A stretch of 64,000 nt of DNA from positions 2,447 to 66,446 of the forward strand of contig JBMNON010000004.1 in NCBI GenBank assembly GCA_050943115.1, in the 5' to 3' direction. Below the pieces are notes generated by a model. That model had not been told where the DNA came from. It worked only from the letters and a program-made list of their open reading frames with translations, and made no database searches. This stretch comes from Patescibacteria group bacterium. Its GTDB lineage: Bacteria > Patescibacteriota > Microgenomatia > UBA12405. Position numbers and translations under genes: made by a program. Of this stretch, positions 26,029-64,000 are shown in pieces; position 1 is the first letter of the stretch; every line of letters starts with the position of its first letter.

Positions 26029-27930
26029 ATGCATGATATTTTAGAAGGCCTTAATCCGGAACAACGCCAAGCCGTTATCCACCATGGAACACCCTTACTT
26101 TTATTGGCTGGTGCCGGTTCTGGAAAAACCCGGGTATTAACTCATCGGGCGGCTTTTTTTATCAAAGAAAAATTAGCTGCCCCGGACGAGATCCTTCTTC
26201 TGACCTTTACCAACAAAGCCGCCGGAGAGATGAAACAAAGGATGGGGCAGTTGCTCGGCCAAAACGTCGAAACCAAGTCACCCTCGTCCCCCAGTGTTTT
26301 CGCTGGTACTTTTCATTCTTTCTGTTGTCGAATCTTGAGGGTTGATGGCCACCATATCGGTATTCCTGAAAACTATGTAATTTACGATACAAACGATCAG
26401 GAAAACCTAATTAAATCTATCCTCAATGATATGGATTTAAGTAGTAAAGAGTTTAAACCAAGCAGCGTGCTTTATTATATTGAAGCTGCCAAGACCAACT
26501 TCCAGTCGCCTCAGGATATGTCCGCCGATTCACATGGTTTCTGGCAGTCATACGCCTCGAAAATATACGGCAAATACCAAACTCTTATGTCCGATTACCA
26601 TGCTCTCGACTTTAATGATCTTCTTTACAAAACCGTCGAGCTGTTTATCAATTGCCCCCAAGTTTTAGAAAAATATCAGGAACGCTACAAATATATTCTT
26701 GTCGATGAATATCAGGACACAAATACAATTCAATACAACTTGACCAAATTGATCTCTAAAAAATTTAAACAAATCACGGCTGTCGGCGATGCCTCTCAAG
26801 CCATTTATGGTTGGCGCGGGGCGGATTATCGTAATTTGGTCAGTTTTACTACCGACTTTCCTGACGCCAAAATTATTAACCTTGAACAAAATTATCGATC
26901 AACTCAAATCATTCTCGATGCCGCAAACTCCGTAATTTCCAAAAACAACTCCCATCCTGTCCTCAAACTTTTTACCAATAAAAAATCCAGCGATCTAATA
27001 AAATTATACGAAGCCGAATCTGAATTGGCCGAATCTGACTACGTTGCCTCAAAAATCAGGTTCATTCACGACAACCTCCATATTCCCTTTAGAAACATCG
27101 CTGTCCTTTACAGGATGAACGCCCAGTCTCGGGTACTCGAAGAGGCTTTTCTAAAACGCTCTATCCCTTATGTTTTGATTGGCGGTACCCGTTTCTATGA
27201 ACGTGCCGAGATCAAAGACATTTTGGCGATGTTGCGCTACGCCAACGACAGTGCCGACAAAATCTCCTTAGAAAGGGTGGAAAAAGCGCTGGGAAAACGT
27301 CGCTTGGCTGCTTTCTTGGAGCATCTACGAGGTTTGAACTTGAAGGAACTTAACTCTCTTCAGATATTGGAATCTTTGGTAATCAACTCCGGTTATCTGG
27401 CTAAATTTAATCCCAAAGAGGAAGATGATCAAAGGAAAATTGAAAATATCAAAGAATTAAAGTCTGTCGCAACAAACTTTCCCAAATTAAATGATTTTTT
27501 GGAAAATATTGCCTTGGTTCAGCAGGAGTATTCCCTTCAGGAGAAAAACAAGAAAAAGGAGAACCGCGATGGTGTCCGGCTTATGACCCTCCACTCTTCA
27601 AAAGGCCTCGAATTTGAAGTGGTTTTTCTGGTTGGTTTTGAAGAGGGGATATTACCCCATTCTCAAAGTATGATAGAAGAGTCCGAGATCGAAGAGGAGC
27701 GTCGTCTTTGCTACGTCGGTATTACCCGGGCCAAGGATTATCTTTACATAACCTATGCTTCCCGACGGCTTTACTTTGGCAAGAGCAGTTTAAATGAACC
27801 CAGTCGTTTTCTTGTCGACATTCCCCAAAATTTAATTGAATTTGAAGAACCAAACGAGATTGTCCGCGATTATCGTCATGGTCGAAACCACGGCGGTGAC
27901 GAATTTATTTATGATCCTGATATATACTAA
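26029..27930 (+). CDS. UvrD/PcrA-family SF1 DNA helicase (compact, 633 aa).
   Basis: Walker A AGAGSGKTRVLTHR, DEYQDTN, GDASQAIYGWRGA, NYRST, LMTLHSSKGLEFEVVFL, VGITRAK. Confidence 0.85.
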   Translation: MHDILEGLNPEQRQAVIHHGTPLLLLAGAGSGKTRVLTHRAAFFIKEKLAAPDEILLLTFTNKAAGEMKQRMGQLLGQNVETKSPSSPSVFAGTFHSFCCRILRVDGHHIGIPENYVIYDTNDQENLIKSILNDMDLSSKEFKPSSVLYYIEAAKTNFQSPQDMSADSHGFWQSYASKIYGKYQTLMSDYHALDFNDLLYKTVELFINCPQVLEKYQERYKYILVDEYQDTNTIQYNLTKLISKKFKQITAVGDASQAIYGWRGADYRNLVSFTTDFPDAKIINLEQNYRSTQIILDAANSVISKNNSHPVLKLFTNKKSSDLIKLYEAESELAESDYVASKIRFIHDNLHIPFRNIAVLYRMNAQSRVLEEAFLKRSIPYVLIGGTRFYERAEIKDILAMLRYANDSADKISLERVEKALGKRRLAAFLEHLRGLNLKELNSLQILESLVINSGYLAKFNPKEEDDQRKIENIKELKSVATNFPKLNDFLENIALVQQEYSLQEKNKKKENRDGVRLMTLHSSKGLEFEVVFLVGFEEGILPHSQSMIEESEIEEERRLCYVGITRAKDYLYITYASRRLYFGKSSLNEPSRFLVDIPQNLIEFEEPNEIVRDYRHGRNHGGDEFIYDPDIY

Positions 27931-35122: not shown

Positions 35123-38100
35123 GTGCCAACTATCATAGATCAGGTAAATTTTGAAACTGAGTACAAGAAGTTAAATCAACAGCAGAGGCAGGCGGTAGAC
35201 GCTATCGAAGGGCCGATAATGATTGTAGCCGGAGCTGGCACCGGCAAGACTCAAACAATCGCTCTTAGGATTGCCAACATTCTCCAAAAAACCCAGACAC
35301 CTCCTCACGGAATCCTCTGTCTCACTTTTACCGAGAATGCCGCCATCAATATGAGGGAGAGGCTGCAGACTATTATCGGTCCTCTTGCCTACAACGTCAA
35401 AATCCACACCTTCCATTCCTTTTGTAATGAAGTCATAAAAACCAATCCTGAACACTTTATCTTTGCCCAAAATATCGAATCTCTCGAAGAACTTGAAAAA
35501 ATTGAAATCATCCGGGAACTTATAGATAACTTACCGGAGGGTTCACAGCTTAAACCGTGGGGGGACCCCTATTACTACCAACGGGACATCATCAGCAGCA
35601 TTCAGTCACTCAAAAGAGAAAACATATCGCCCAAAAAATTTTTTGACCTTATCAAAGAACAGGAAAAATTCCTTAAGAACACCAAAGACCAATATTCAGC
35701 CCTTAAAGCTCTTAGAATCGGTAAGACTATCGAATCGGAACTTATGACTATTGTTGAAAACCTAAAAAAAGAATCTGAGAAATTTAAAGCAATTTACAGC
35801 CTAATAAACCTCAACCATCAGCTTTATCTTCAGGGACACTTCGACATCGGTCTGGCCAAAAACCCAGCAGTAAATTTCAAAAATGCTCTCATAAAAATAT
35901 TTGATAATTTTGAGAAAGACACCCCCCGTCAGCTTGAACTTCACCAGATATTTATCGCCTACCAGCAGGAACTCCAGCGACTGGGGCGCTATGACTTCGA
36001 CGATATGATTCTTTTTGTTCTCGATGCCTTCAGGGAAGATCAGGAACTGCTCCTGGCCTACCAGGAGCGTTTCCAATATGTTTTGGTTGATGAATACCAG
36101 GACACCAACTCAGCCCAGAATCAAATCCTAGACCTGCTTGGTTCCTACTTTGATGACCCCAATATATTTGTTGTTGGCGACGACGACCAGTCAATTTTCC
36201 GTTTCCAGGGGGCTTCAATCGAAAACATCTATGAGTTTTACCAAAAATATAAAAAAAGCATTAAAGTAATTGTCCTAAAAAACAATTACCGTAGTCATCA
36301 GCTTATCCTGGACACTTCCGCCTCAGTTATTAACTACAACAAAAATCGGATCGTAAACTACATTGAGAATATTGACAAATCCCTGGTTTCTATCAGTACC
36401 TATGACCCCAACCCCGTCAACTTCTATGAAGGCACCTCGGTTCTCGACGAGAATTATTTTATTGCCCAAAAAATTGAGGAGTTAACTGAAAATGGCACCA
36501 GCCCCAGGGAAATTGCTGTTTTGTTCCGTAACAACAGCGATGCCGATGATTTGGTCGAAACTTTAGAAAACAAAGGTATCAAATTTCATCTTGAATCTGG
36601 CACAAATGCCCTGGATCATCCCAGAATAAAGCAACTGATTAGATTGCTTACTTATATTAATGACCCCACAGATAGTGAAAGCCTTTTCCATCTACTTTCC
36701 TATGATTTTATAAAAATAAACTCATTCGATCTTTACCGGATACTTCAATATTCCCATCGCCATCAATTGCCACTAAGCGAATTGATATCCAGTCCTCATC
36801 TTTTAAGCCAGATTAATGGTATAAAGAAAAACACCTTAATCCGTTTAAAAAACTTTTCGATTCGTACTGCCAAAGCCATCCACTGGCTAAAATATTACAA
36901 CCTTGACCGTTTTTTCAATAGGACGATAAGGAAGTTTGGTTATTTAAGTCATATCGTCGCTTTAAATGACTTGGAGTTAATAAACTACCTTAACGCTTTT
37001 TATAACGAAATAAAGCGCTTCTCGGTAAAAAAGGAAACTACGCTTTCGGATTTTCTGGAACGCATTGAGCTCTTTATCGACAACAAAATCCCTCTTACTG
37101 CCCAGGAATTGTTATCCGACTCGGAAAACTCTGTTCGCCTGATGACTGTACACAAAGCTAAAGGCTTGGAATTTGAACATGTTTTTTTAACTAAATGCAC
37201 CGATCGGAAATGGGGAAACAACTATCATGCCAGCCCGCTCCGACTGCCTTCAGGCATTCTTAAAACCGAAATATCCCGTTTGGCTCACGATGAAAACGAA
37301 GATGAGCGCCGTCTTTTTTATGTTGCCCTCACCCGCGCCAAAAAACAAATCTACATCTCCTACTCCCGAAAAACCGAAACCGGCAGGGATCAGTTGCCTT
37401 CAATTTTTATTGCCGAAATAAAACCTGATCTTATTGAAAAAATATCCCCTCAATCCCAAAGTCAACAGGAGGCCATCTTTAATGCTTTCCCCCTGGATTC
37501 CAAGAAACCCATAAAAAATATTGAACTTTCATCCCACCTGAAAGATCAGTTGAAGAAAAATTACAAGCTTAACGTGACTCACCTGAACTCCTATCTGGAA
37601 TGTCCTCTCTGCTTTTATTACAAAACAATTTTAAGGATCCCATCAATCAAGGATAAATATGCCGCTCTGGGAACTGCTGTTCATTATAGCCTCAGCCATC
37701 TGTTTAACGTCCTTGGTCAACAGGGAAAGCTGATTAGCAAAAAAGATCTGTTAACCTTTTACGAGCAAGCGCTGAAGCGCGAGGATTTAAGTCAGAAGAA
37801 CTTTAAAGAAGCCCTGCATCGGGGAACGGAATCCCTCTCGGAATACTATGACCACTACCAATCGTCCTTTAGCGGTAACTGTGTTATGGATTATGATTGC
37901 ACCCCGCGTCACTTGTTTGTTGACGATACTCCCATTACCGGGAAAATAGACAAAATTGAAATTCAAAAGACCACTCGCGATGGGAAACCCGCTGCTAATT
38001 TAGTTGATTTTAAGACCGGTAATCCCGATACCAAGAGTAAAGATATGCAGCCCGGAGGTTCCTACTACAACCAGATTGTTTTTTACAAAATCCTTACCGA

Positions 38101-38329
38101 TTCTGATCCTGAGTTCCCTTATCACGTCAGCACCGCCACCATCGATTTCATTCAAAAGAGTAAATACAAAAAAACCTTCATCCGCAGGGATTTTGAGTTT
38201 AGGAAAGACGATATCGATATTGTCAAAAAATTGATAAAGGAAATATACGAAAAAATAATTAATCTCGACTTCAATCATATCGGTGAAGAATGCAAAGATG
38301 AACAAGACCTCCACGGCTTGCTAGAATAG
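35123..38329 (+). CDS. UvrD-like SF1 helicase fused to C-terminal RecB-family (PD-(D/E)XK, probable Fe-S) nuclease; AddA-like helicase-nuclease, GTG start.
   Basis: Helicase motifs AGAGTGKTQT, DEYQDTN, GDDDQSIFRFQGA, NYRSHQ, LMTVHKAKGLEFEHVFL, VALTRAK. Nuclease motifs GTAVHYSL, GKIDKIEI, LVDFKTG, YYNQIVFYKIL (QxxxY). Four flanking Cys (ECPLC...C...EECK) suggest an AddB/Cas4-like Fe-S ligation. Confidence 0.75.
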   Translation: MPTIIDQVNFETEYKKLNQQQRQAVDAIEGPIMIVAGAGTGKTQTIALRIANILQKTQTPPHGILCLTFTENAAINMRERLQTIIGPLAYNVKIHTFHSFCNEVIKTNPEHFIFAQNIESLEELEKIEIIRELIDNLPEGSQLKPWGDPYYYQRDIISSIQSLKRENISPKKFFDLIKEQEKFLKNTKDQYSALKALRIGKTIESELMTIVENLKKESEKFKAIYSLINLNHQLYLQGHFDIGLAKNPAVNFKNALIKIFDNFEKDTPRQLELHQIFIAYQQELQRLGRYDFDDMILFVLDAFREDQELLLAYQERFQYVLVDEYQDTNSAQNQILDLLGSYFDDPNIFVVGDDDQSIFRFQGASIENIYEFYQKYKKSIKVIVLKNNYRSHQLILDTSASVINYNKNRIVNYIENIDKSLVSISTYDPNPVNFYEGTSVLDENYFIAQKIEELTENGTSPREIAVLFRNNSDADDLVETLENKGIKFHLESGTNALDHPRIKQLIRLLTYINDPTDSESLFHLLSYDFIKINSFDLYRILQYSHRHQLPLSELISSPHLLSQINGIKKNTLIRLKNFSIRTAKAIHWLKYYNLDRFFNRTIRKFGYLSHIVALNDLELINYLNAFYNEIKRFSVKKETTLSDFLERIELFIDNKIPLTAQELLSDSENSVRLMTVHKAKGLEFEHVFLTKCTDRKWGNNYHASPLRLPSGILKTEISRLAHDENEDERRLFYVALTRAKKQIYISYSRKTETGRDQLPSIFIAEIKPDLIEKISPQSQSQQEAIFNAFPLDSKKPIKNIELSSHLKDQLKKNYKLNVTHLNSYLECPLCFYYKTILRIPSIKDKYAALGTAVHYSLSHLFNVLGQQGKLISKKDLLTFYEQALKREDLSQKNFKEALHRGTESLSEYYDHYQSSFSGNCVMDYDCTPRHLFVDDTPITGKIDKIEIQKTTRDGKPAANLVDFKTGNPDTKSKDMQPGGSYYNQIVFYKILTDSDPEFPYHVSTATIDFIQKSKYKKTFIRRDFEFRKDDIDIVKKLIKEIYEKIINLDFNHIGEECKDEQDLHGLLE

Positions 38330-38332
38330 GGG

Positions 38333-38764
38333 ATGCAAGTCAAAATTAAGCGCTTCGATAAAAATCTGCCTTTGCCCGCTTATAAAAGTACCGGTGCTGC
38401 CTGCACTGATCTTTATACTCGGGAAGATGCCATCATTCCCCCGGGAGGAATTTCCTATATCCCCTTAAATATCGCCCTTGAAGTTCCTGCAAGTCACCTG
38501 GCAATTATTGCTCCCAGAAGCTCAACTCACAAAATCGGCATTATGCAAGCCAATGGTATCGGCATTATTGATTCCGATTACTGCGGTGATAACGATGAAT
38601 TGGTTTTTGCAGCTTATAATTTCACCCCAGAATCCGTCAAGATTGAAAAGGGTACCCGTCTTGCCCAACTTATAATATTGGGTTATGAAAACATAGATTT
38701 TAAAGAAACCGATACCTTGGGCAATACTGACAGGGGTGGCTTCGGTTCTACAGGTCAAAAATAA
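38333..38764 (+). CDS. dut: dUTP diphosphatase.
   Basis: KSTGAACTDLY, IIDSDYCGD, RLAQLII, C-terminal GNTDRGGFGSTG motif V; 143 aa. Confidence 0.85.
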   Translation: MQVKIKRFDKNLPLPAYKSTGAACTDLYTREDAIIPPGGISYIPLNIALEVPASHLAIIAPRSSTHKIGIMQANGIGIIDSDYCGDNDELVFAAYNFTPESVKIEKGTRLAQLIILGYENIDFKETDTLGNTDRGGFGSTGQK

Positions 38765-39991: not shown

Positions 39992-41116
39992 ATGGTTCCT
40001 GTTTATATTCTGCTTGGTATCGTAATAGTCCTTTTGGTCTATTTTATTCTTCGCCAACCCCCCAAAGCCAAAACAGAAGAAATATCCGAGGAGTTTTTCA
40101 ACAAATTCAACGAAAAGTTCCCCGATATAATGAAAAACGCCAATTCCCTCCTTGTTTCCATGGCAGCCCAGAAACTTGATTCTCAAAAGCAGGAAATTGA
40201 AGTTGACCTGGCCAACAAGAAAGAAAATATTGAAAAGATGGTCAAGCAAGTCTTGGATGAGTTAAAAAATAGTTCCAACAAGTTAGAACAAGCCGAAAAA
40301 GACCGTGTAAGCAGCTTTTCCAGCCTTAAAAAATCACTTGAAAATTCAGAAAAGATTACCCAGCATTTATCGGCCACTACCGAAAGTTTAAGCAAAGTCC
40401 TTTCCAACAACCAGCTGCGGGGAGCTTTTGGAGAAAAAGTAGCCGAGGACCTTCTAAAAATGAGCGGGTTTGTTGTTGGCACTGATTATGAAGTAAACAA
40501 GGAGCAATCCACTACTGAAACCCGTCCCGATTTTGCTATTTTACTACCCGACGGAGCCAGGATAAACGTTGATGTTAAATTTCCTTATTCCAGCCTGACA
40601 AAAATGGCAGAAACCTCAGACGAGGAAACCAAAAACCGTTACTTAAAGATGTTTGAGCGGGATGTCAAAGATAAGATTAAACAGGTTTGTACCCGTGATT
40701 ATATCGATCCCGAAAATAAAACAGTTGACTTTGTTATTCTCTTTATCCCAAACGAAATGATATTTTCTTTTATCTACGACAAAATGACCAATGTCTGGGA
40801 AGAAGCCATGAAGAACAAGGTCGTTCTTTGTGGTCCTTTCAGCTTTACCGCAATTTTGCGTATGGTTCGCCAGGCTTACGATAACTTCCGCTATCAGAAC
40901 AATATCCAGCAAATAATAACTTACATCAAGCTTTTTGAAAAAGAGTTCGACAGCTATAATCAGGAATTCGAAAAAATCGGGGATAGGATAGAAAGCCTTT
41001 CCCGTCAGTACAACACTGTTAGTACTACCAGGACCAGGCAGCTTCTAAAAGTCGTTGACCGTATAAAAATAGAAGACTCCAATCAGAAATCATCTGTATT
41101 GGAATTGGAAAAATGA
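39992..41116 (+). CDS. rmuC: DNA recombination protein RmuC.
   Basis: N-terminal TM and coiled coil, then the RmuC core LRGAFGEKVAEDLL...RPDFAILLPDG...VDVKFP...VDFVILFIPNE; 374 aa. Confidence 0.8.
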   Translation: MVPVYILLGIVIVLLVYFILRQPPKAKTEEISEEFFNKFNEKFPDIMKNANSLLVSMAAQKLDSQKQEIEVDLANKKENIEKMVKQVLDELKNSSNKLEQAEKDRVSSFSSLKKSLENSEKITQHLSATTESLSKVLSNNQLRGAFGEKVAEDLLKMSGFVVGTDYEVNKEQSTTETRPDFAILLPDGARINVDVKFPYSSLTKMAETSDEETKNRYLKMFERDVKDKIKQVCTRDYIDPENKTVDFVILFIPNEMIFSFIYDKMTNVWEEAMKNKVVLCGPFSFTAILRMVRQAYDNFRYQNNIQQIITYIKLFEKEFDSYNQEFEKIGDRIESLSRQYNTVSTTRTRQLLKVVDRIKIEDSNQKSSVLELEK

Positions 41117-48126: not shown

Positions 48127-48969
48127 ATGTCTCAAAATAACATGAATTTGAGCCAAAATAACCGCTCGGTTATCGAAGAGACAGGTAATCTTAAAAAATT
48201 TGGAAGCAGGCCAAATATGAAAAACTATAAAGTTGATTCCATCAAAAACTTAATTGACGGTGCCAAAAGCGCTCTGATTGTTGTCCCTGAACTAAACATC
48301 GATAGTGCCGGAGCTGCTCTTGCCTTAGCTTTACTTTTAAAAAAACAGGGCAAGCAGGTTCAGGTTTACTCGCCTCAATCTACCGACAATAATTATTCCA
48401 GGTTAGCCGGTCTCGATCTCTTAACCAACAATTTAACCAGCAGCGATTTGATTATTTCCCTCAATTATCCTCTGGATCAAATTGACCAGGTTTCTTATAA
48501 CGACGATGGCGGTAAATTGAATTTGGTTGTTAAGACCAAAGACAACGCCCCGAAAATCGAAAACGATAGTATCATCGTCAACAACCAGTCATCCGTTGCC
48601 GATGTCAATATTATGCTTGGTGACGAAACTAAATTGGAAAATCAGGAGATCATCAAAAAGGGTAATTGGGTACTAATCACTCCTCAAAACGTTAGTAAAG
48701 ACTGGCCAAAAGCTACTTTAGTCGACCCCGATGCCCCTTACTCTGAAATCTTCACCTTCTTACTGCCCATGCTTGGATTAGATTTGGACACCGATTCAGG
48801 CAAGGACCTATTAATTGGTTTAAGAGTTGCCACCCAGTCTTTTTCCGTTAATGTCTCACCCGAAACATTTGAAGCTGGCGCCATTAACTTGAGGGCTACT
48901 CAGCCTCCCGCCGAGTCTTCTTCAAATCAGGGTGGTAATCCCGAGCCCTCATCTGTATCCACAGTCTAA
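48127..48969 (+). CDS. DHH-family-like protein with degenerate catalytic motifs (NrnA-like position between infB and rpsO).
   Basis: ALIVVPELNIDSAGAALALALLLKKQGKQVQVY aligns with the NrnA motif I region (isHxnPDGDAiGSslaL), but the His and first Asp are replaced and no DHH triad is visible. 280 aa. Confidence 0.35.
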   Translation: MSQNNMNLSQNNRSVIEETGNLKKFGSRPNMKNYKVDSIKNLIDGAKSALIVVPELNIDSAGAALALALLLKKQGKQVQVYSPQSTDNNYSRLAGLDLLTNNLTSSDLIISLNYPLDQIDQVSYNDDGGKLNLVVKTKDNAPKIENDSIIVNNQSSVADVNIMLGDETKLENQEIIKKGNWVLITPQNVSKDWPKATLVDPDAPYSEIFTFLLPMLGLDLDTDSGKDLLIGLRVATQSFSVNVSPETFEAGAINLRATQPPAESSSNQGGNPEPSSVSTV

Positions 48970-49236
48970 ATGTCTAAAGAAAGCGTAAATACTTGCCAGG
49001 ATTGTGTTTTATTTTTACCAATCGAAGACACCAAACCGATAAAATATCTTCGGGCCAAATTAAAAGACTGTTCCCCTTGGAGAACCCAGCTTGATAATTC
49101 TCAAACCGGTTTATGCCAGAGTATGGCAAGATTAGTTATCGTTAACAGGAGTGGAAGGGCAGTTGTTGAATGTCCGGCGGTGTTGTCCACAGCCCCCTCT
49201 TGTGAAAACTTTCTTCCAAGAAGACGGGAAGAATAA
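48970..49236 (+). CDS. Small Cys-containing hypothetical protein (88 aa).
   Basis: ORF abuts the upstream gene (stop/start adjacent). Six Cys including a CxxC. Could be spurious. Confidence 0.3.
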   Translation: MSKESVNTCQDCVLFLPIEDTKPIKYLRAKLKDCSPWRTQLDNSQTGLCQSMARLVIVNRSGRAVVECPAVLSTAPSCENFLPRRREE

Positions 49237-49648: not shown

Positions 49649-51838
49649 ATGGTTATGACCAGTAACTCTTTTGATATAAAAATCGGCGACCAAATTATAA
49701 ATCTCGAAGCCAACAAGCTCGCCCCCCAAACTAATGCTTCAGTAGTAGCCACCTATGGTAATACCAAGGTATTAGCTACGGTTGTAATGGGCAGAACTGA
49801 CCAAAGCCGGGATTATTTCCCTCTTTCAGTAGAATTTGTTGACAAGCTTTACGCTGGTGGTTTGGTTAAGGGTGGTAAATGGGTTAAAAGAGAAGGCGGT
49901 CCTTCTGACAATGCTATCCTTTTTGGCCGGATTATTGACCGGTCTGTTCGTCCTCTCTTTCCGGACGGCTTTATGAACGAAGTTCAGATTGTCACCACCG
50001 TCCTCAGCAACGACAAGGAACATGATATAGTTTTGGCTGCTTTTACCGCAGCTTCAGCCGCCCTGGCCATTTCCGATATCCCCTTTAATTCTGCAGTATC
50101 TGCTGTCAGGGTTGGTCTGATCGAGGGTAAGATGGTAATTAACCCGGCACTCTCTCATCTTAGCCAATCCAGCCTGGATCTCCTTGTCTGTACGGGTCCG
50201 GCGGGTGTCAATATGATTGAGGCTGATGCTCAAATAGTCGACAACGAGGCTGTCCTTAATGCCATTGAAGTGGCCAAGGACACCGGCGAAGCAATTAACA
50301 AACAGATATTGGAATTTGCCCAAAAATACGGTAAGAAAAAAGTGGAGTTTATTCCGGTTCTTCCGCCCCAGGATCTAATTGAAGAACTCAATTCTAAGTA
50401 TCAGGAAGATATCAAAAAATTCCTTGAAAACGGTGTCGACGGTAACCACATGCAGGCCGAGCATGATTTGCTGGAGAAAATTACACAAGATTACAAAGCC
50501 AGGGTTGAGACCGAAGAAGAATTTACCAAACTTTTAACTGAATCATTCAACTACGTCATTAAAAAACATATTCGCCAGAGTACTCTCGATGGCCAGAGAT
50601 ATGACAAAAGGGCTTTTGATGAAATTCGTCCTCTTCAAATCGAAGCCGGGATTCTCCCTTCGGCTCATGGTTCAGCCCTGTTTCAAAGAGGTTTGACGCA
50701 GGCATTGACCATAACTACTCTAAGCTCTTTGGCGGAAAAACAGTACCTCCAGGATTCAACCGGAGAAACCACAAAACGATATATCCACTACTACTCTGCA
50801 ATGCCTTTTTCCACCGGTGAAGCCGGTCGATTTGGTCGTCCCGGCAGAAGGGAAGTCGGCCATGGGGCTCTAGCTGAGAAAGCCCTGGCTCCTGTTATCC
50901 CATCTGAGCAAGAGTTTCCCTATACCATTATTCTGACATCGGAAGTTCTTTCGCAAAACGGATCTTCTTCCATGGCTTCTACTTGCGGCTCAACTTTGAG
51001 CCTGATGGATGCCGGAGTCCCCATAAAAGATAAAGTAGCCGGAATTTCTATTGGTATGATGTCTGATGACAAGGATAACTATGTCCTTCTGACTGATATC
51101 GCCGGAGTCGAAGATCACAATGGCGATATGGATTTTAAAATAACCGGCACCCGCACCGGTATTACCGCCATTCAGCTTGATATCAAAAGAATGGGCTTGA
51201 CCATGGATATGATAAAAGCTACTTTTGAGGCAAGTACCAAAGCCAGATTTCACATCTTAGATGAAATGGAAAAAGTGTTGTCCTCACCCCGTCCTGAGTT
51301 ATCACCCAATGCTCCTAAAATTTCTATGGTTCGTGTCCCCGAAGAAAAAATTGGAGAGATTATCGGCAGTGGCGGAAAGACTATTAAAGGGCTTATGGAG
51401 AAATATGGAGTTGAGATCGAGGTCGACGATGAAGGCATTACCTCAATATCCTCTCTGGATCCGGCCAAAAACGAGGCTGCAGCTGAAGAAATTCGGGCTA
51501 TGATAAAAGAGGTGGAAATAGGAGAAGAGTATGCCGGAGTAGTTACCAGAGTTGAGAACTATGGCGCTTTTATTGAGTTCCTTCCCGGAAGAGAAGCCCT
51601 GCTTCATGTTTCCGAGATGTCCGGTGGTTTTATTGCCGACCCTTCGTCTATTATCAAAATAGGCGATAAAGTCGACGTCAAAATTTCCGGTTTCAATGAT
51701 AATCACCAAATAAAATTATCTGCTCCTCAATTTAAGGCTGATCATCCCGGTTCTCCCCAGCAACCCAGACCGGCATTTGATCGAAATCGGACAAGCTACG
51801 GTAGGCCTCCTTTCCGACCCAAAGACCGTCGCCGCTAA
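49649..51838 (+). CDS. pnp: Polyribonucleotide nucleotidyltransferase (PNPase).
   Basis: Two RNase PH domains, KH (GSGGKTIKGL) and S1 (GVVTRVENYGAFIEF) domains, basic C-terminal tail; 729 aa. Confidence 0.9.
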   Translation: MVMTSNSFDIKIGDQIINLEANKLAPQTNASVVATYGNTKVLATVVMGRTDQSRDYFPLSVEFVDKLYAGGLVKGGKWVKREGGPSDNAILFGRIIDRSVRPLFPDGFMNEVQIVTTVLSNDKEHDIVLAAFTAASAALAISDIPFNSAVSAVRVGLIEGKMVINPALSHLSQSSLDLLVCTGPAGVNMIEADAQIVDNEAVLNAIEVAKDTGEAINKQILEFAQKYGKKKVEFIPVLPPQDLIEELNSKYQEDIKKFLENGVDGNHMQAEHDLLEKITQDYKARVETEEEFTKLLTESFNYVIKKHIRQSTLDGQRYDKRAFDEIRPLQIEAGILPSAHGSALFQRGLTQALTITTLSSLAEKQYLQDSTGETTKRYIHYYSAMPFSTGEAGRFGRPGRREVGHGALAEKALAPVIPSEQEFPYTIILTSEVLSQNGSSSMASTCGSTLSLMDAGVPIKDKVAGISIGMMSDDKDNYVLLTDIAGVEDHNGDMDFKITGTRTGITAIQLDIKRMGLTMDMIKATFEASTKARFHILDEMEKVLSSPRPELSPNAPKISMVRVPEEKIGEIIGSGGKTIKGLMEKYGVEIEVDDEGITSISSLDPAKNEAAAEEIRAMIKEVEIGEEYAGVVTRVENYGAFIEFLPGREALLHVSEMSGGFIADPSSIIKIGDKVDVKISGFNDNHQIKLSAPQFKADHPGSPQQPRPAFDRNRTSYGRPPFRPKDRRR

Positions 51839-51853
51839 TGTATACTGATAATA

Positions 51854-52915
51854 ATGGATACCAAGGCTTTGACTGTAGACCAAGCTATAGTCAATCTAAA
51901 GGCTAAAACTAAAGACACAAACTTTCCTCCTGCTTTAGTTGACAAGCTCAATGAGCTTTTTGCCCAACTGGAAATAAATGCCAGATCCGAATCCAACTTT
52001 TGGCAAAATTTTCAATCGGCATCCCAGTACATCGATTGGTTAATTAGCCTTCCCTGGAATCAGGAAAGTAAGGATATCCTAGATCTTGACTATGCCAGGG
52101 AAAAACTTAATGAAAATCACTATGGCCTCGATGCTGTTAAGGAGAGAATCCTCGAATATATTTCGGTTCTAGCCTTGCAAAAAAACCGTACCCCCGACCA
52201 ACCTCTTAGGGCTCCAATTCTTCTTTTTGTAGGTTTAGTAGGTACCGGAAAAACTACCATGGCCAAATCAATTGCTGATGTTATGGGCCGCAAGCTTATA
52301 CGTATTCCTTTTGGCGGCTTGGGTGATCCTCATTACCTTAGAGGTCGATCAAAGTACTACCAGGATGCGCAACCTGGTCAAATTATCAAAGGATTAGCTT
52401 GGGCAAAAACAAGAAACCCGGTGATTCTTTTGGATGAAATTGACCGTGTTGCCGACGATGCTTTAAACACCATAATGGGTGTTCTGGTCGAATTGCTGGA
52501 TCCTGAACAGAACATGGCGTTCACTGATCACTACATTGATTATCCCTTCAATCTTTCCCAGTGCGTTTTTGTTGCTACCTGTAACAATACCAATCGAATT
52601 GCTACTGCTGTTATGGATCGTCTTGAAGTTATTCAGATGCCCTCATATACCGATGAGGAGAAAATCGCCATAGGCCGGGATTATATTTTGCCTTCAGCGA
52701 TTAAAGATGCCGGCTTAAAGCCTGGCGAACTTCTAATCGCACCTTCTATATGGCCACAGGTTGTCCGCCCCCTGGGTTTTGATGCCGGAGTTAGAACCTT
52801 GAAAAGGAACATTGAAGGACTCTGCCGAAAGACAGCTCGTCTTATTTTTGAGAACAAGACCAAGGCTGTGACGGTGGACGAATCCAATGTTAAACATTTT
52901 TTGCCTCAGTGGTAA
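51854..52915 (+). CDS. Lon-like AAA+ ATPase module only (no N-domain, no S16 peptidase domain).
   Basis: Near-colinear match to the LonA ATPase region: HYGLDAVKERILEY, Walker A GLVGTGKTT, IIKGL...NPVILLDEIDRV (Walker B), LLDPEQNMAFTDHY, VFVATCN, MDRLEVIQM, sensor-2 GVRTLKRNIEGLCRK. The ORF stops where the protease domain would begin and the next gene is a UDG. Confidence 0.7.
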   Translation: MDTKALTVDQAIVNLKAKTKDTNFPPALVDKLNELFAQLEINARSESNFWQNFQSASQYIDWLISLPWNQESKDILDLDYAREKLNENHYGLDAVKERILEYISVLALQKNRTPDQPLRAPILLFVGLVGTGKTTMAKSIADVMGRKLIRIPFGGLGDPHYLRGRSKYYQDAQPGQIIKGLAWAKTRNPVILLDEIDRVADDALNTIMGVLVELLDPEQNMAFTDHYIDYPFNLSQCVFVATCNNTNRIATAVMDRLEVIQMPSYTDEEKIAIGRDYILPSAIKDAGLKPGELLIAPSIWPQVVRPLGFDAGVRTLKRNIEGLCRKTARLIFENKTKAVTVDESNVKHFLPQW

Positions 52916-53487
52916 TGTCGCCAAAAGATAAAAAACTAAAATATATCGCTGATTTAGTAGCTCAATGCACTAAATGCCCTCTTTATAAAACAGCTACCAA
53001 TCCGGTTCCGGGGTCAGGAGATTCTAAAACAGAAATTGTCCTTATCGGCGAAGCCCCGGGCTTTTATGAAGATCAGCAGGGTTTGCCCTTTGTCGGTAAT
53101 TCTGGTAAACTACTTGATAGACTATTGGCAGACATCAAATTGAGTCGGGAAGAAGTTTTTATCTGTAACATCCTAAAACATCGACCTCCCAACAATCGCG
53201 ATCCGCTGCCAAACGAAATTAGGGCTTGTGTACCTTATTTGAAAGCCCAATTACAAGTTATCGAGCCGAAAGTTATAGTCACCCTGGGAAGATTCGCTCT
53301 TAATTATTTTTTCCCGCAGGATATGATTAGCCGGGTTCATGGACAAATTAAACAATTTGTGTGGCAGGAACAAAACCTGTCTATGATTCCTGTCTATCAT
53401 CCGTCAGCGGCACTACGAAGCACCTCCAACCTAAAAGCTCTGGAAGAAGACTTCCGGAAAATCGGCAAATATTTAAATAAAATTTAA
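52909..53487 (+). CDS. Uracil-DNA glycosylase, family 4 (Fe-S type).
   Basis: CTKCPLYKTATNPVPGSG, GEAPG.YED..GLPFVG.SGKLL, HPSAAL; 192 aa. Confidence 0.8.
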   Translation: MVMSPKDKKLKYIADLVAQCTKCPLYKTATNPVPGSGDSKTEIVLIGEAPGFYEDQQGLPFVGNSGKLLDRLLADIKLSREEVFICNILKHRPPNNRDPLPNEIRACVPYLKAQLQVIEPKVIVTLGRFALNYFFPQDMISRVHGQIKQFVWQEQNLSMIPVYHPSAALRSTSNLKALEEDFRKIGKYLNKI

Positions 53488-53489
53488 TT

Positions 53490-55259
53490 ATGGAAAGAAA
53501 ACAAAGAAAACCAAAACAAAAAGGACAGGACCAAGTCCAGCAAAACTTTTACAATAACCCGGTCAGGCAGTATAAAAACCCCTATGACTCTGTCAGGATC
53601 GCCTCGTTGGGAAGCTTTGGTGATGTCACCCAAAACATGTTCGTTTATGAATTCATCCCTAACGGCGATTACAACAAGAGTCAAATAATAATTGTAGATG
53701 CCGGTGTCGGCTTTCCTGAGGAAGACGCTTTCGGGGTGGATCTTCAGATACCAGACACCCAATATCTTCAGGACAAAAAAGACAGAATACTGGGAATACT
53801 TATCACTCACGGCCACGAAGATCATATTGGTGCTATCCGCTTTATTCTACCGATTCTTGGGAAAAATATCCCTATTTATGCACCAAAACTTGCAGCTGCT
53901 TTTATTGAATCCAGGCTTACTGAAAGTAGCTTGAGGGCAAATATGCACATTTATGATGGCAGGGAACAAATCAAATTGGGTCCTTTCACGGTTGACCCTG
54001 TTCGGGTCACTCACTCTATACCAGATACTTTTCATCTTGCCATTAATACCTCAATCGGTGTCTTTTATCACGGATCGGATTTTAAATTTGATGTTTTCCC
54101 GCTTGATAATAAACCTTCAGACATGAGAAAAATAGCCCATGTAGGCGATAAAAATGTAGTATGTTTACTTTCAGATAGCTTAGGCTCTGATCATGAAGGT
54201 TTTTCTCCCTCGGAACGTTCAATTGCCGAAAACTTTAAAAGGGAAATTGTCTCTGCCCCCGGACGGGTATTTGTCACCTCGATTTCCAGCAACATTGTCC
54301 GTTGGAGTCAGGCCATAGAATATGCCAAAAGCGTCGGCCGCAAAATTGCCGTTGTCGGCTTTTCAATTGAAAAAGCTATTGGTATTGCGCGGGAGCTCAA
54401 CTACATTAACTTAACCGAAGCAGACATGATCCCAATTGAGAGGGCTAAAAATTTCCCGGACAACAAGATTATCTTTTTAGTTGCCGGTTTCGCCGGCCAG
54501 CCCGATTCGGCCCTCAGCAAAATTGTCATGGGCAAGCACCGCTTGAAAATTAAACCCGGGGACAAGGTAATATTTTCTTCCCCTGATTATATTCCCGGCA
54601 CTACCTCCGGCATATATGAAATGATTGATAATTTGGCACGTCAGGGTGCGGATGTCACATACGGAGAAAAAGAAGAACTCCATGTTTCCGGCCATGGATA
54701 TCAAAAAGAACACGCCATCCTGATTGATCTTCTCAAACCAAAATACCTTCTGCCTATTGGCGGCAACTTCCGGCATGTAAAAAGCTATGAAAGCATGGCC
54801 AAAAACCTGGGCTACAAGGAGGAACAAGTAATCAAACCGGACTATGACGCCACGGTCACTTTCCATGGCAACGGTAACTTTGATACCAATTTCCGCATAC
54901 CTTTAAAGAAGGTTTTAATTGACGGCTTGGGAATTGGTGACGTTGGCACTACTGTTCTTCGGGATAGAAAACTTCTAGCCGAAGACGGCATGATAACAAT
55001 TGTTATGCTTGTCGATTCCCAAACCGGCGAGCTGTATAAGGAGCCGGTAATTCTTAGTCGAGGCTTCGTCTTCGTAAAAGAAAGTTCGGATCTTCTTAAT
55101 TATCTGCGCCAGGAAGTTACTGGCAAGTTTAAGCAGGTCACCAGTAAACCAGCAAATTTCGATTATATCCGTGAGGAAATTCAGGGTTACATCGAAACAA
55201 TAATCCACCAAAAAACCGGCCGTGAGCCCATGGTTCTGCCCTTGGTAATTGAAGTCTAG
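53490..55259 (+). CDS. rnj: Ribonuclease J (metallo-beta-lactamase/beta-CASP).
   Basis: ILITHGHEDHIGAI (HxHxDH), beta-CASP motifs, C-terminal domain; 589 aa. Confidence 0.85.
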   Translation: MERKQRKPKQKGQDQVQQNFYNNPVRQYKNPYDSVRIASLGSFGDVTQNMFVYEFIPNGDYNKSQIIIVDAGVGFPEEDAFGVDLQIPDTQYLQDKKDRILGILITHGHEDHIGAIRFILPILGKNIPIYAPKLAAAFIESRLTESSLRANMHIYDGREQIKLGPFTVDPVRVTHSIPDTFHLAINTSIGVFYHGSDFKFDVFPLDNKPSDMRKIAHVGDKNVVCLLSDSLGSDHEGFSPSERSIAENFKREIVSAPGRVFVTSISSNIVRWSQAIEYAKSVGRKIAVVGFSIEKAIGIARELNYINLTEADMIPIERAKNFPDNKIIFLVAGFAGQPDSALSKIVMGKHRLKIKPGDKVIFSSPDYIPGTTSGIYEMIDNLARQGADVTYGEKEELHVSGHGYQKEHAILIDLLKPKYLLPIGGNFRHVKSYESMAKNLGYKEEQVIKPDYDATVTFHGNGNFDTNFRIPLKKVLIDGLGIGDVGTTVLRDRKLLAEDGMITIVMLVDSQTGELYKEPVILSRGFVFVKESSDLLNYLRQEVTGKFKQVTSKPANFDYIREEIQGYIETIIHQKTGREPMVLPLVIEV

Positions 55260-62237: not shown

Positions 62238-64000
62238 ATGAACCAAACAAATTTTTGGTTGATTTCTATTGACGAAGGTATTGTCTCCGCTTCTTTAATC
62301 CTTCTTAAAGAAAGCAGTTTTTCCATCGCCGCCATAGGTGGTCAGGTGGAATGGCACCAGGAAGACGATACTTCTCTACTAACGGCAGTTGACGGCTCTT
62401 TGTCCCAAGCTGCACTTAAAGCCGGATTATCTGAGGATCAGGAACCGGAAAATGCCGCTTTTATTCTACCTCCTTTTTGGGTCGGATCCGATGGCAAGAT
62501 TGTTGCCGACAAAAAAAAGAATATCGAAAATTTATGTAAAACACTCAATCTTAAACCGATGGGTTTTATTGCCAATGATGAAGCTGTTGTTGAAGAAGCC
62601 AATCTTAGGGATGGTTTTCCCGTCAGCTTTGTTTTACTTAACCTAAGTCAAAGCAGTATAACTATATCCTTAGTATATTTGGGCAAGATCAAAGAAAGGA
62701 TAAAAAAACCCATGCCCAATGAATTCAATCCGTCCTTAGTTGAATCTGCCTTAATAGAATTAAATTCCGAATCAACCCTGCCGCCACAAATACTAGTCTT
62801 TGGCCAAGCCGATGACAATATTATAAACTTACTTAAAAATTACCCCTGGATAGGTAAAAAGGATACTGAAACATTTTTACATTTTCCCGATATTAATCTG
62901 GTTTCCCAGGAAAGCGTCACCAAGATTTATTCCTCGGTTATTGCGTCCCAGATAAACCCCGGAAGCCTCAAAGCATCAGTGCCTATTCCTGCCAGCCGGC
63001 TTGACTCCGAATACAAAACTGAGATAGAACCTGACTCACCTGAAAGTGAACCAGGCCCTTCTGATGACGGACTTGATTACCCGCCCTCTGTTGATACATC
63101 AGAAATCACAGAAAGTTTCTCGTCATTCGACAAGCCGATAAAATTAGCCCAGGAAATCAAGGAAGTTCCTCCTCAAGATCTTGGATTTTCTGTCTCCGAC
63201 TATGACAAACCTCTTGATGATGTCAAGCCTGTCCAGGAAGAGACCTTGCCCTTAATAAACCAACCGGTCTTGGATACACCGTCTGAAACATCTCTTGACA
63301 ATATCCCTATTCCCCAAAAGAAAAAGCTTAATTTGTCTTTACCCAAAATAAATTTCCCTAAATTGAAATTACCGAAATTAAAATTAGCCGGTAGGCTGGT
63401 TTTTATTCTTCCTGCCCTATCTCCCTTACTTCTTCTTATACCTTTCTTTTTCTCGAAGGCAGATATCCGTCTTTTCGTCACCCCTTTTGAATTCGACTAC
63501 GTTAATAATGTTATTTTGGATACTGCAGCAGTCGGTTTCAATAGTAGTCAGAACATTATTCCTGCAGAAAACAAGACCTTAGAATTCACAGTTTCCGACA
63601 GCGTCCCTACCACCGGAGAAAAAACTGTTGGAGAAAAGGCTCAGGGAGAAATCACAATTTATAACAAACAAGACAGAAATCAATCTCTTAAACAGGGAAC
63701 AATCCTGATCGACTCTGATGGTCGGAATTATGAGTTGGTCAACGATGTCTCCGTGGCTTCCAGTAGTTCAGATTTGGATGAAGGCGTTATCAATTTAGGT
63801 CAAACAAAAGCCCTTGTAATTGCCGCCGACATAGGTCCCGAATATAACCTACCCAAAGATGCCAGACTCACTTTTAAAGAACACTCAGATGGAGCCTTAA
63901 TCGCCAAGGCTACCGATCCGTTCGTTGGTGGTAGTAAACGCCAAATAAAGGCCGTAAGCAAAGAGGATAAAACAGCTCTCGAACAAAGGCTTGACTCCAC
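62238..64000 (+). CDS. Large membrane protein, 3'-truncated by the window edge: cytoplasmic N-domain, acidic/Pro-rich disordered region, single TM, extracytoplasmic domain.
   Basis: ORF open from ATG 62238 to the window end (not in the track because there is no stop). TM LVFILPALSPLLLLIPFFF around codon 390. The off-frame 62389..62646 ORF is internal to it. Confidence 0.45.
   Translation, partial: MNQTNFWLISIDEGIVSASLILLKESSFSIAAIGGQVEWHQEDDTSLLTAVDGSLSQAALKAGLSEDQEPENAAFILPPFWVGSDGKIVADKKKNIENLCKTLNLKPMGFIANDEAVVEEANLRDGFPVSFVLLNLSQSSITISLVYLGKIKERIKKPMPNEFNPSLVESALIELNSESTLPPQILVFGQADDNIINLLKNYPWIGKKDTETFLHFPDINLVSQESVTKIYSSVIASQINPGSLKASVPIPASRLDSEYKTEIEPDSPESEPGPSDDGLDYPPSVDTSEITESFSSFDKPIKLAQEIKEVPPQDLGFSVSDYDKPLDDVKPVQEETLPLINQPVLDTPSETSLDNIPIPQKKKLNLSLPKINFPKLKLPKLKLAGRLVFILPALSPLLLLIPFFFSKADIRLFVTPFEFDYVNNVILDTAAVGFNSSQNIIPAENKTLEFTVSDSVPTTGEKTVGEKAQGEITIYNKQDRNQSLKQGTILIDSDGRNYELVNDVSVASSSSDLDEGVINLGQTKALVIAADIGPEYNLPKDARLTFKEHSDGALIAKATDPFVGGSKRQIKAVSKEDKTALEQRLDS

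Follow-up and report, generated by a model that had tools for sequence, protein, structure and literature searches.

A free-standing LonA-type ATPase gene

The 64,000-nucleotide stretch of contig JBMNON010000004.1 analyzed here (positions 2,447 to 66,446 of the forward strand; assembly GCA_050943115.1, Patescibacteria group bacterium), hereafter the window, contains an open reading frame (ORF) that encodes a LonA-type AAA+ ATPase without the protease domain and the N-domain of Lon. The gene is a genuine, selectively maintained, stand-alone LonA derivative in which a three-helix bundle is followed by a nucleotide-binding domain and then by a lid. The ORF and its features, numbered from the first letter of the window, are the following:

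51854..52915 (+): protease-less, N-domain-less LonA-type AAA+ ATPase ORF of 353 amino acids, with an ATG start and a TAA stop at 52913-52915
51875..52048 (+): three N-terminal helices, residues 8-65, equivalent to the LonA NTD-3H bundle (end of the HI(CC) domain), from AlphaFold secondary structure, Foldseek and alignment
52232..52258 (+): Walker A, GLVGTGKTT, residues 127-135, family-invariant (canonical LonA, GPPGVGKT)
52340..52378 (+): pore-loop-1 segment R163-G175 (RGRSKYYQDAQPG), with Y169 at the position of Lon Y398
52421..52486 (+): Walker B, VILLDEID, residues 190-197, followed by the family-invariant RVADDALNTIMGV (198-210; the coordinates end at L211), from alignment
52583..52588 (+): sensor-1 asparagines N244/N245 (ATCNN), invariant
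52619..52621 (+): arginine finger R256 (MDRLE, 254-258), aligned with Lon R484, invariant; role from PMC7239648
52703..52864 (+): Lon lid (small alpha-helical domain), residues 284-337, PF22667
52793-52795 (+): sensor-2 R314 (GVRTL, 312-316), equivalent to Lon R542, invariant
52901..52912 (+): C-terminal tail L-P-Q-W-COOH, from the family alignment, in a region of lower model confidence

Domain content and structural model

A Pfam search with the ORF protein returned an AAA domain (residues 123-261, E=8.9e-19) and a Lon_lid domain (residues 284-337, E=6.6e-9), and no other match. The NCBIfam model TIGR00763 ('lon') matches the protein with E=2.9e-94, covering model positions 253-573 of 795 only, and the score of 317 bits lies below the family cut-off of 608; the score for PRK10787 (246) is likewise below its cut-off (891). 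The S16 Ser-Lys domain (PF05362) is missing, with no Lon_C match in the protein, as are the LON substrate-binding domain (PF02190) and the long coiled coil, the three-helix bundle alone being retained. Residues 294-579 of Escherichia coli Lon align to the ORF with 40.6% identity (tblastn), and the ORF ends at the position of E. coli Lon residue 579, in the linker between the AAA+ and S16 domains.

The best matches among solved structures are all LonA proteins, including Bacillus subtilis Lon (PDB code 3m6a, 1e-75) and the 235-584 fragment of E. coli Lon (6n2i, 3e-68). An AlphaFold model built on 45 family members has a predicted local distance difference test (pLDDT) value of 87.9 and a predicted template modelling (pTM) score of 0.82. 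Three N-terminal helices (residues 8-20, 26-44 and 46-65) precede an α/β domain, which is followed by the lid; the helical bundle includes Y59-I-D-W62, aligned with Lon Y294/W297. When the model was compared with the PDB by Foldseek, the top 50 matches were all LonA or LONP1 chains, with TM values of 0.78-0.86 over approximately 345 columns. Pfam and Foldseek are thus in agreement on a LonA-type AAA+ module with a Lon lid. The models of other AAA+ families in NCBIfam are far weaker on this protein (ClpA, 5.5e-10; RuvB, 5.6e-3), and a better fit to RuvB, ClpX or ClpA is rejected by the dominance of the lon model and by the exclusively LonA-type fold matches.

These data bear out the original prediction, made from the letters of the DNA alone, that the ORF is a free-standing LonA ATPase region belonging to Lon and not to another AAA+ clade, and that it stops at the boundary with the S16 domain; the motifs named at that stage were all located at mapped residues, and the alignment to E. 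coli Lon fixes the boundaries. The proposed start of the protein has to be amended. The globular N-domain is absent, as had been stated, but the ORF does not begin after the whole N-terminal region of Lon, since residues 8-65 form the three-helix bundle.

Two other origins were considered and rejected. Matches to defence-system models (PADLOC; DolB, IetA and TRIP13) are partial and weak, the best being DolB with 2.4e-10 over the P-loop core, and the neighbouring genes are housekeeping genes and not a defence island. The match to a phage family (PHROG) is to a full-length Lon-like profile, of which positions 251-578 of 793 only are covered.

The gene is under purifying selection

That the ORF ends at the place expected for the start of the S16 domain could in itself be explained by a truncated lon pseudogene, or by a frameshift or misassembly in a full-length lon. 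The data speak strongly against such an artefact or decaying remnant. The same protein with the same stop is found in two independent assemblies, SRR31061296 and SRR27676599, and among the complete related ORFs from species-level genomes, 78 of 82 have their stop codon right where the alignment ends. Hundreds of genomes agree in the length and the C-terminus of the protein. Substitution rates (dN of 0.1-0.2 with saturated dS; dN/dS of approximately 0.05-0.08) indicate strongly purifying selection, and conservation reaches at least 98% at 151 of the 353 positions of the family alignment. In addition, there is no room for an S16 remnant downstream because a uracil-DNA glycosylase (UDG) gene starts at the stop codon. 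Frameshift, sequencing error and pseudogene are accordingly rejected, their probability being negligible in our view, and the clean reading frame claimed by the original prediction is real.

ATPase motifs and pore loops

The ATP-binding and hydrolysis elements are invariant in the close family and kept across the wider protease-less clade. The roles of the Lon coupling residues, of the arginine finger that acts in trans, and of the pore pair Y398/I399 have been described (PMC7239648). In the ORF protein, K133, D194/E195, N244/N245, R256 and R314 are invariant, as is the bridging glutamate E218 of the DPEQN motif (LLDPEQN, 214-220), which corresponds to Lon E447. The residues that couple the helical bundle to the hairpin are likewise invariant in the family and kept in the clade; these are Y59 and W62 in the bundle, and Y227 and D229, which align with the PS1-hairpin residues Y456 and E458 of Lon. 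This pattern is what would be expected of an active AAA+ ATPase of the HCLR clade. An arginine finger can act only between neighbouring subunits, so that its strict conservation here implies an oligomeric, ATP-hydrolysing ring; the protein would assemble as a ring and cycle ATP like Lon.

The residues at the central pore follow a different pattern. At the position of Lon Y398, tyrosine is present in 68 of 68 full-length Lons of the data set, whereas the close family has Y in 77 and H in 44 sequences, with P as the next residue in place of the I/V of Lon. Distant protease-less members carry H, R, F, S, Q, E, N or D. The aromatic-hydrophobic pair of Lon (Y398-I399) is therefore not conserved across the family; the ORF protein itself reads Y168-Y169-Q170. 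The loop continues after the pore-1 position with a conserved, acid-rich P-[DE]-A-E-P-G, and the family-invariant segment DRVADDALNTIMGV stands at the pore-2 region, replacing the DKMxxDxRGDPxSA of Lon. The lack of conservation of the pore-1 tyrosine argues against a classical threading unfoldase.

Taken together, these features place the protein outside the LonA protease family in its defined sense, because it lacks the protease domain and the N-domain, scores below the family cut-off, and belongs to a family in which the pore-1 pair is not conserved. Even so, it is clearly derived from LonA.

A further conserved feature of the family lies at the C-terminus. The ending P-Q-W-COOH is present in 120 of 121 close homologues, and approximately 75 of 82 genome loci end in [LIMV]-P-x-[WY]. 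A terminal W or Y is also common among the distant protease-less members (QAW, QMY, PNYY, PMW, PTW, DEW), though not universal. The lower confidence of the model in this region suggests that the tail is flexible.

Distribution and phylogeny of the family

A scan of species-level genomes (one genome per species) yielded 484 matches that encode a relative. The best 80 of these 484 include sequences from Shapiro-, Woese-, Gottesman-, Ames-, Levy- and Roizmanbacteria, with 53-82% identity. More than 120 protein clusters share 70-82% identity with the ORF protein, all of them 348-358 amino acids long and from Shapirobacteria, Woesebacteria and 'Patescibacteria group' genomes. Among representatives at 50% identity, further protease-less Lon modules were found (39-57% identity) with variable N- and C-terminal extensions that have no Pfam match; some are named Dojkabacteria. 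When the most distant member was used as the query, the proteins retrieved were again mostly 344-360 amino acids long, and among them were sequences from Woesebacteria, Woykebacteria and the Microgenomates group.

In a neighbour-joining distance tree of 186 Lon AAA+ modules, which is rough and carries no support values, one pure clade holds 25 of the 27 protease-less modules. The clade spans Shapiro-, Woese-, Gottesman-, Levy-, Roizman-, Woyke- and Dojkabacteria. This grouping points to one old loss behind the protease-less forms, and not to repeated accidents. The closest ordinary full-length Lons are those of Firmicutes (Clostridiales, Veillonellaceae) and not of the candidate phyla radiation (CPR), and the nearest tree neighbours of the clade are Lons with two or three tandem AAA+ modules.

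These tandem Lons are a group in their own right. Thirty-three of the 150 nearest representatives (P0121-P0141 and others) consist of two to three consecutive AAA + Lon_lid modules followed by a single S16 domain, and a LonA N-domain could not be detected in them. One sequence belongs to Candidatus Dependentiae; another is surrounded by housekeeping genes on a contig of 283 kb. The literature searched yielded no account of a Lon with tandem AAA+ modules.

Many of the species-representative metagenome-assembled genomes that have the gene and its synteny (L005, L006, L008 and others) bear the title 'uncultured Gammaproteobacteria bacterium', while 'Candidatus Methanoperedens sp.' and 'Clostridia bacterium' appear on individual genomes. 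Judged by gene content, these titles look like placeholders or wrong taxonomic labels.

In databases, members of the family are named 'AAA family ATPase', 'ATP-dependent Lon protease' or, for Woesebacteria in UniRef, 'Lon protease'. The two protease labels are wrong for these genes, and metabolic reconstructions may consequently overcount proteases in these organisms. No dedicated Pfam or NCBIfam model captures the protease-less family, and literature searches combining Lon with Patescibacteria, CPR, Microgenomates or protease-less wording found no report on it.

Genomic neighbourhood

In the window, the gene lies between those for PNPase and UDG; these and further ORFs, all on the same strand, are the following:

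48127..48969 (+): conserved 280-amino acid ORF directly after infB, without a Pfam match
48970..49236 (+): Cys-rich ORF of 88 amino acids, also without a Pfam match
49649..51838 (+): PNPase, the upstream neighbour, with its stop 15 nucleotides before the ORF start
52915..53487 (+): UDG superfamily protein, family-4-type (Pfam UDG, 1.2e-36)
53490..55259 (+): RNase J, the next gene, 2 nucleotides after UDG
62238..63998 (+): long ORF that runs past the end of the window (763 amino acids in the source contig), with no Pfam match at 1e-5

The ATG of UDG (52915) shares one base with the stop codon of the ATPase gene (TAATG), which confirms that an unrelated UDG gene follows directly, as originally noted. 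Locus counts rest on 83 related loci (1.3 Mb of flanks). A PNPase match lies upstream in 79 of the 83, with a gap of at most 60 nucleotides in 41 of 78; RNase J lies downstream on the same strand in 70, and UDG stands between the gene and RNase J in 39. Across the Microgenomates, the genes form a collinear array on one strand, hrcA-grpE-dnaK-dnaJ-nusA-infB-x-rpsO-pnp-[gene]-(udg)-rnj-(proS)-ftsK-HTH25-alaS. Relatives with 39-47% identity still precede udg and/or rnj (rnj in L087 and L088), or follow rpsO-pnp, and UDG adjoins two distant relatives, of 43% identity (with a 4-nucleotide overlap) and 47% identity. Dojkabacterial and other distant members are found in unrelated contexts. The genes seen there include groES, M16/M23 peptidases, histidine kinases and, on the opposite strand, a C39-like peptidase. 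A promoter and terminator scan of 45-60 kb gave counts equal to those of shuffled sequence, so that operon limits cannot be set.

Several neighbours have features of their own. The C-terminus of PNPase (51730..51838; 78 related loci) is a basic low-complexity tail of 30-40 residues rich in R, F, N, P and G, which ends here in ...GRPPFRPKDRRR; the median net charge over the last 35 residues is +5.5. RNase J (53490..) starts with a basic K/Q-rich extension. The 280-amino acid ORF after infB is found in 62 of the 83 loci; in many bacteria, infB is followed by rbfA and truB. Genes for DNA maintenance are concentrated in the window and comprise a UvrD/PcrA-like helicase (26029..27930), an AddA-like helicase-nuclease (UvrD + PD-(D/E)XK; 35123..38329), a dUTPase (38333..38764), RmuC (39992..41116) and the UDG. 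Otherwise, the genes of the window serve ordinary housekeeping and envelope functions.

Given these neighbours, the ATPase might be an accessory of RNA decay that assembles or remodels a degradosome-like complex, or ribonucleoprotein substrates, together with the flanking PNPase and RNase J. DEAD-box helicases play a comparable role elsewhere. The frequency, proximity and shared strand of pnp and rnj fit such a function, as does the fact that adjacency to rnj, or the place after rpsO-pnp, is kept in relatives of 39-47% identity. Nothing resembling a promoter or terminator stands out in the gaps separating the genes, and the basic R/F/N/P-rich tail of PNPase could suit the acid-rich pore loop. 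However, the whole 20-kb hrcA-alaS block is collinear across the class, so that the adjacency may reflect conserved gene order only, and Dojkabacterial and other distant members stand in unrelated contexts. The acidic pore loop also disfavours RNA binding. We regard a role in RNA decay as quite unlikely.

The coupling to UDG could indicate instead a DNA-associated factor that has kept the nucleic-acid binding of Lon and cooperates with UDG, its translationally coupled neighbour, in the repair of uracil or the upkeep of the nucleoid. Both the stop/start overlap here and the 4-nucleotide overlap in the 43%-identical relative are in line with this view, as are UDG genes after the 47%-identical relative and in the 39 loci mentioned above; the PDB depositors of 6n2i named it 'DNA-binding ATP-dependent protease La'. 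Yet more than half of the loci have no UDG at this place while the ATPase is unchanged, gene overlaps are common in such compact genomes, and no DNA-binding motif was identified in the protein. Such a function seems highly improbable.

Search for a partner peptidase

A peptidase encoded elsewhere could compensate for the missing S16 domain. The Lon motor would then be the unfoldase half of a two-component protease, docking onto its peptidase by the Φ-P-x-W-COOH tail. Two-part machines of this kind are formed by HslU with HslV and by ClpX with ClpP, and the ATPases of the proteasome dock by HbYX tails. ClpX and HslU share the HCLR clade with Lon (PMC7239648). The tail of the ORF protein would suit docking, being invariant and located on a lower-confidence, probably flexible end, and many distant protease-less members share an aromatic final residue. 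The ring implied by the arginine finger is also compatible with such an arrangement.

Searches for the peptidase were made by tblastn with E. coli proteins as queries. Neither the 64-kb window nor the 1.3 Mb around the 83 homologues contained an S16 domain, a Lon N-domain, ClpP or ClpX, and a Lon N-terminal query (E. coli residues 1-300) had no match in the window or the 83 related loci. Pfam analysis of 37 further ORFs of the window revealed no compartmentalised peptidase, the only peptidase-type genes being an M24 aminopeptidase and a sortase. No peptidase adjoins the gene in any of the 83 Microgenomates loci, and none that could be a partner was seen in the six distant contexts examined. 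The candidate docking tail is conserved, and a cognate peptidase was not found in the window or in the flanks of the 83 loci. Moreover, much of the clade has lost the pore-1 aromatic, which fits poorly with a motor that feeds a protease, and some members of the clade end without the tail motif. A split protease is rather unlikely in our view.

Proposed function

The explanation that we favour, with somewhat better than even confidence, is that the protein is a ring-forming, ATP-hydrolysing LonA derivative that acts as a non-proteolytic remodelling or chaperone-like motor. In this model, the protein would form a ring without the protease domain and hydrolyse ATP as Lon does, as the invariant trans-acting arginine finger suggests. 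Proteins would no longer be threaded processively into a degradation chamber, since neither the chamber nor a conserved set of gripping residues is left. The ATP-driven ring would work, in a remodelling or chaperone-like fashion, on a limited range of clients or a partner, and the gene would be expressed as a housekeeping gene within the long co-directional hrcA-to-ftsK array.

Several points weigh against this proposal. Ring formation without the protease domain is deduced from sequence. The ORF protein keeps a tyrosine at pore-1 (Y168-Y169), so that some threading may be possible. The conserved C-terminal tail resembles a docking motif for a separate partner, and the distance tree is open to long-branch attraction.

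The tail also admits a more speculative scheme, in which Microgenomates and Dojkabacteria have a two-part machine whose Φ-P-x-W tail docks the ring onto a separately encoded peptidase or onto PNPase/RNase J, whose basic tails would suit the acid-rich pore loop. We consider this scheme unlikely. If it were true, a peptidase partner would make the system a naturally split Lon, and a PNPase/RNase J partner would make it a degradosome powered by an AAA+ ring and not by a DEAD-box helicase.

In the usual view, the motor and the protease of Lon form one fusion that cannot be divided, and whether Lon has an independent 'chaperone' role is an old question that is usually studied with catalytic-site mutants. 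The family described here amounts to a natural dissection of Lon, in which a large, minimal-genome lineage of tiny-celled bacteria keeps the motor alone under strong purifying selection. The ATP machinery of the motor is intact and the substrate-gripping residues are rewired, as would be anticipated if the motor were kept for a job other than protein degradation. The protein, small and well defined with its 353 residues, is suited to asking what a Lon ring does without proteolysis, and the conserved tail points to a possible partner.

Comparison with known systems

The closest known system is LonA itself (endopeptidase La; TIGR00763; MEROPS S16-A), as found in E. coli, B. subtilis and human LONP1. 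The ORF protein shares with LonA approximately 40% identity over the bundle and the AAA+ module, the same fold, Walker A and B, sensor-1, the arginine finger, sensor-2, the bridging glutamate of DPEQN, and the Tyr/acidic pair of the PS1-hairpin. By contrast, it has no PUA-like N-domain, no S16 Ser-Lys domain, and little of the long coiled coil. It differs further in its Walker A sequence (GLVGTGKT instead of GPPGVGKT), in the unconserved pore-1 pair, in the replaced pore-2 segment, and in the new Φ-P-x-W tail.

Like the ORF protein, ClpX and HslU are stand-alone AAA+ proteins of the HCLR clade of Lon, and for both of them the single-ring form is known. HslU engages its peptidase by a C-terminal tail. 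The ORF protein differs from the two in that it lacks an IGF-type loop or I-domain, its pore-1 aromatic is unconserved, and no partner peptidase was found nearby; its similarity to the ClpA, ClpX and RuvB models is marginal. The tandem-AAA Lons, its nearest relatives in the distance tree, are likewise without a detectable LonA N-domain, but they keep S16 and a mostly aromatic pore-1, and none was traced to Microgenomates. LonC presents the inverse case, an active protease with a degenerate ATPase. The plant FtsHi proteins (PMC8197885) are a variation on the same theme, in which one part of a fused AAA+ protease is retained for another purpose once the other activity has been lost; FtsHi keeps an inactive protease domain, whereas in the ORF protein the domain is cleanly deleted.

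In domain content, the counterpart of the ORF protein is EcLon(235-584) (PDB code 6N2I), which consists of exactly the same parts, namely the three helices of HI(CC) and the NB and H domains. This fragment crystallises as an open helical hexamer (PMC6722904). EcLon(235-584) is an engineered truncation, whereas the ORF protein is the product of a natural, independently evolving gene with conserved loops and a conserved tail of its own.

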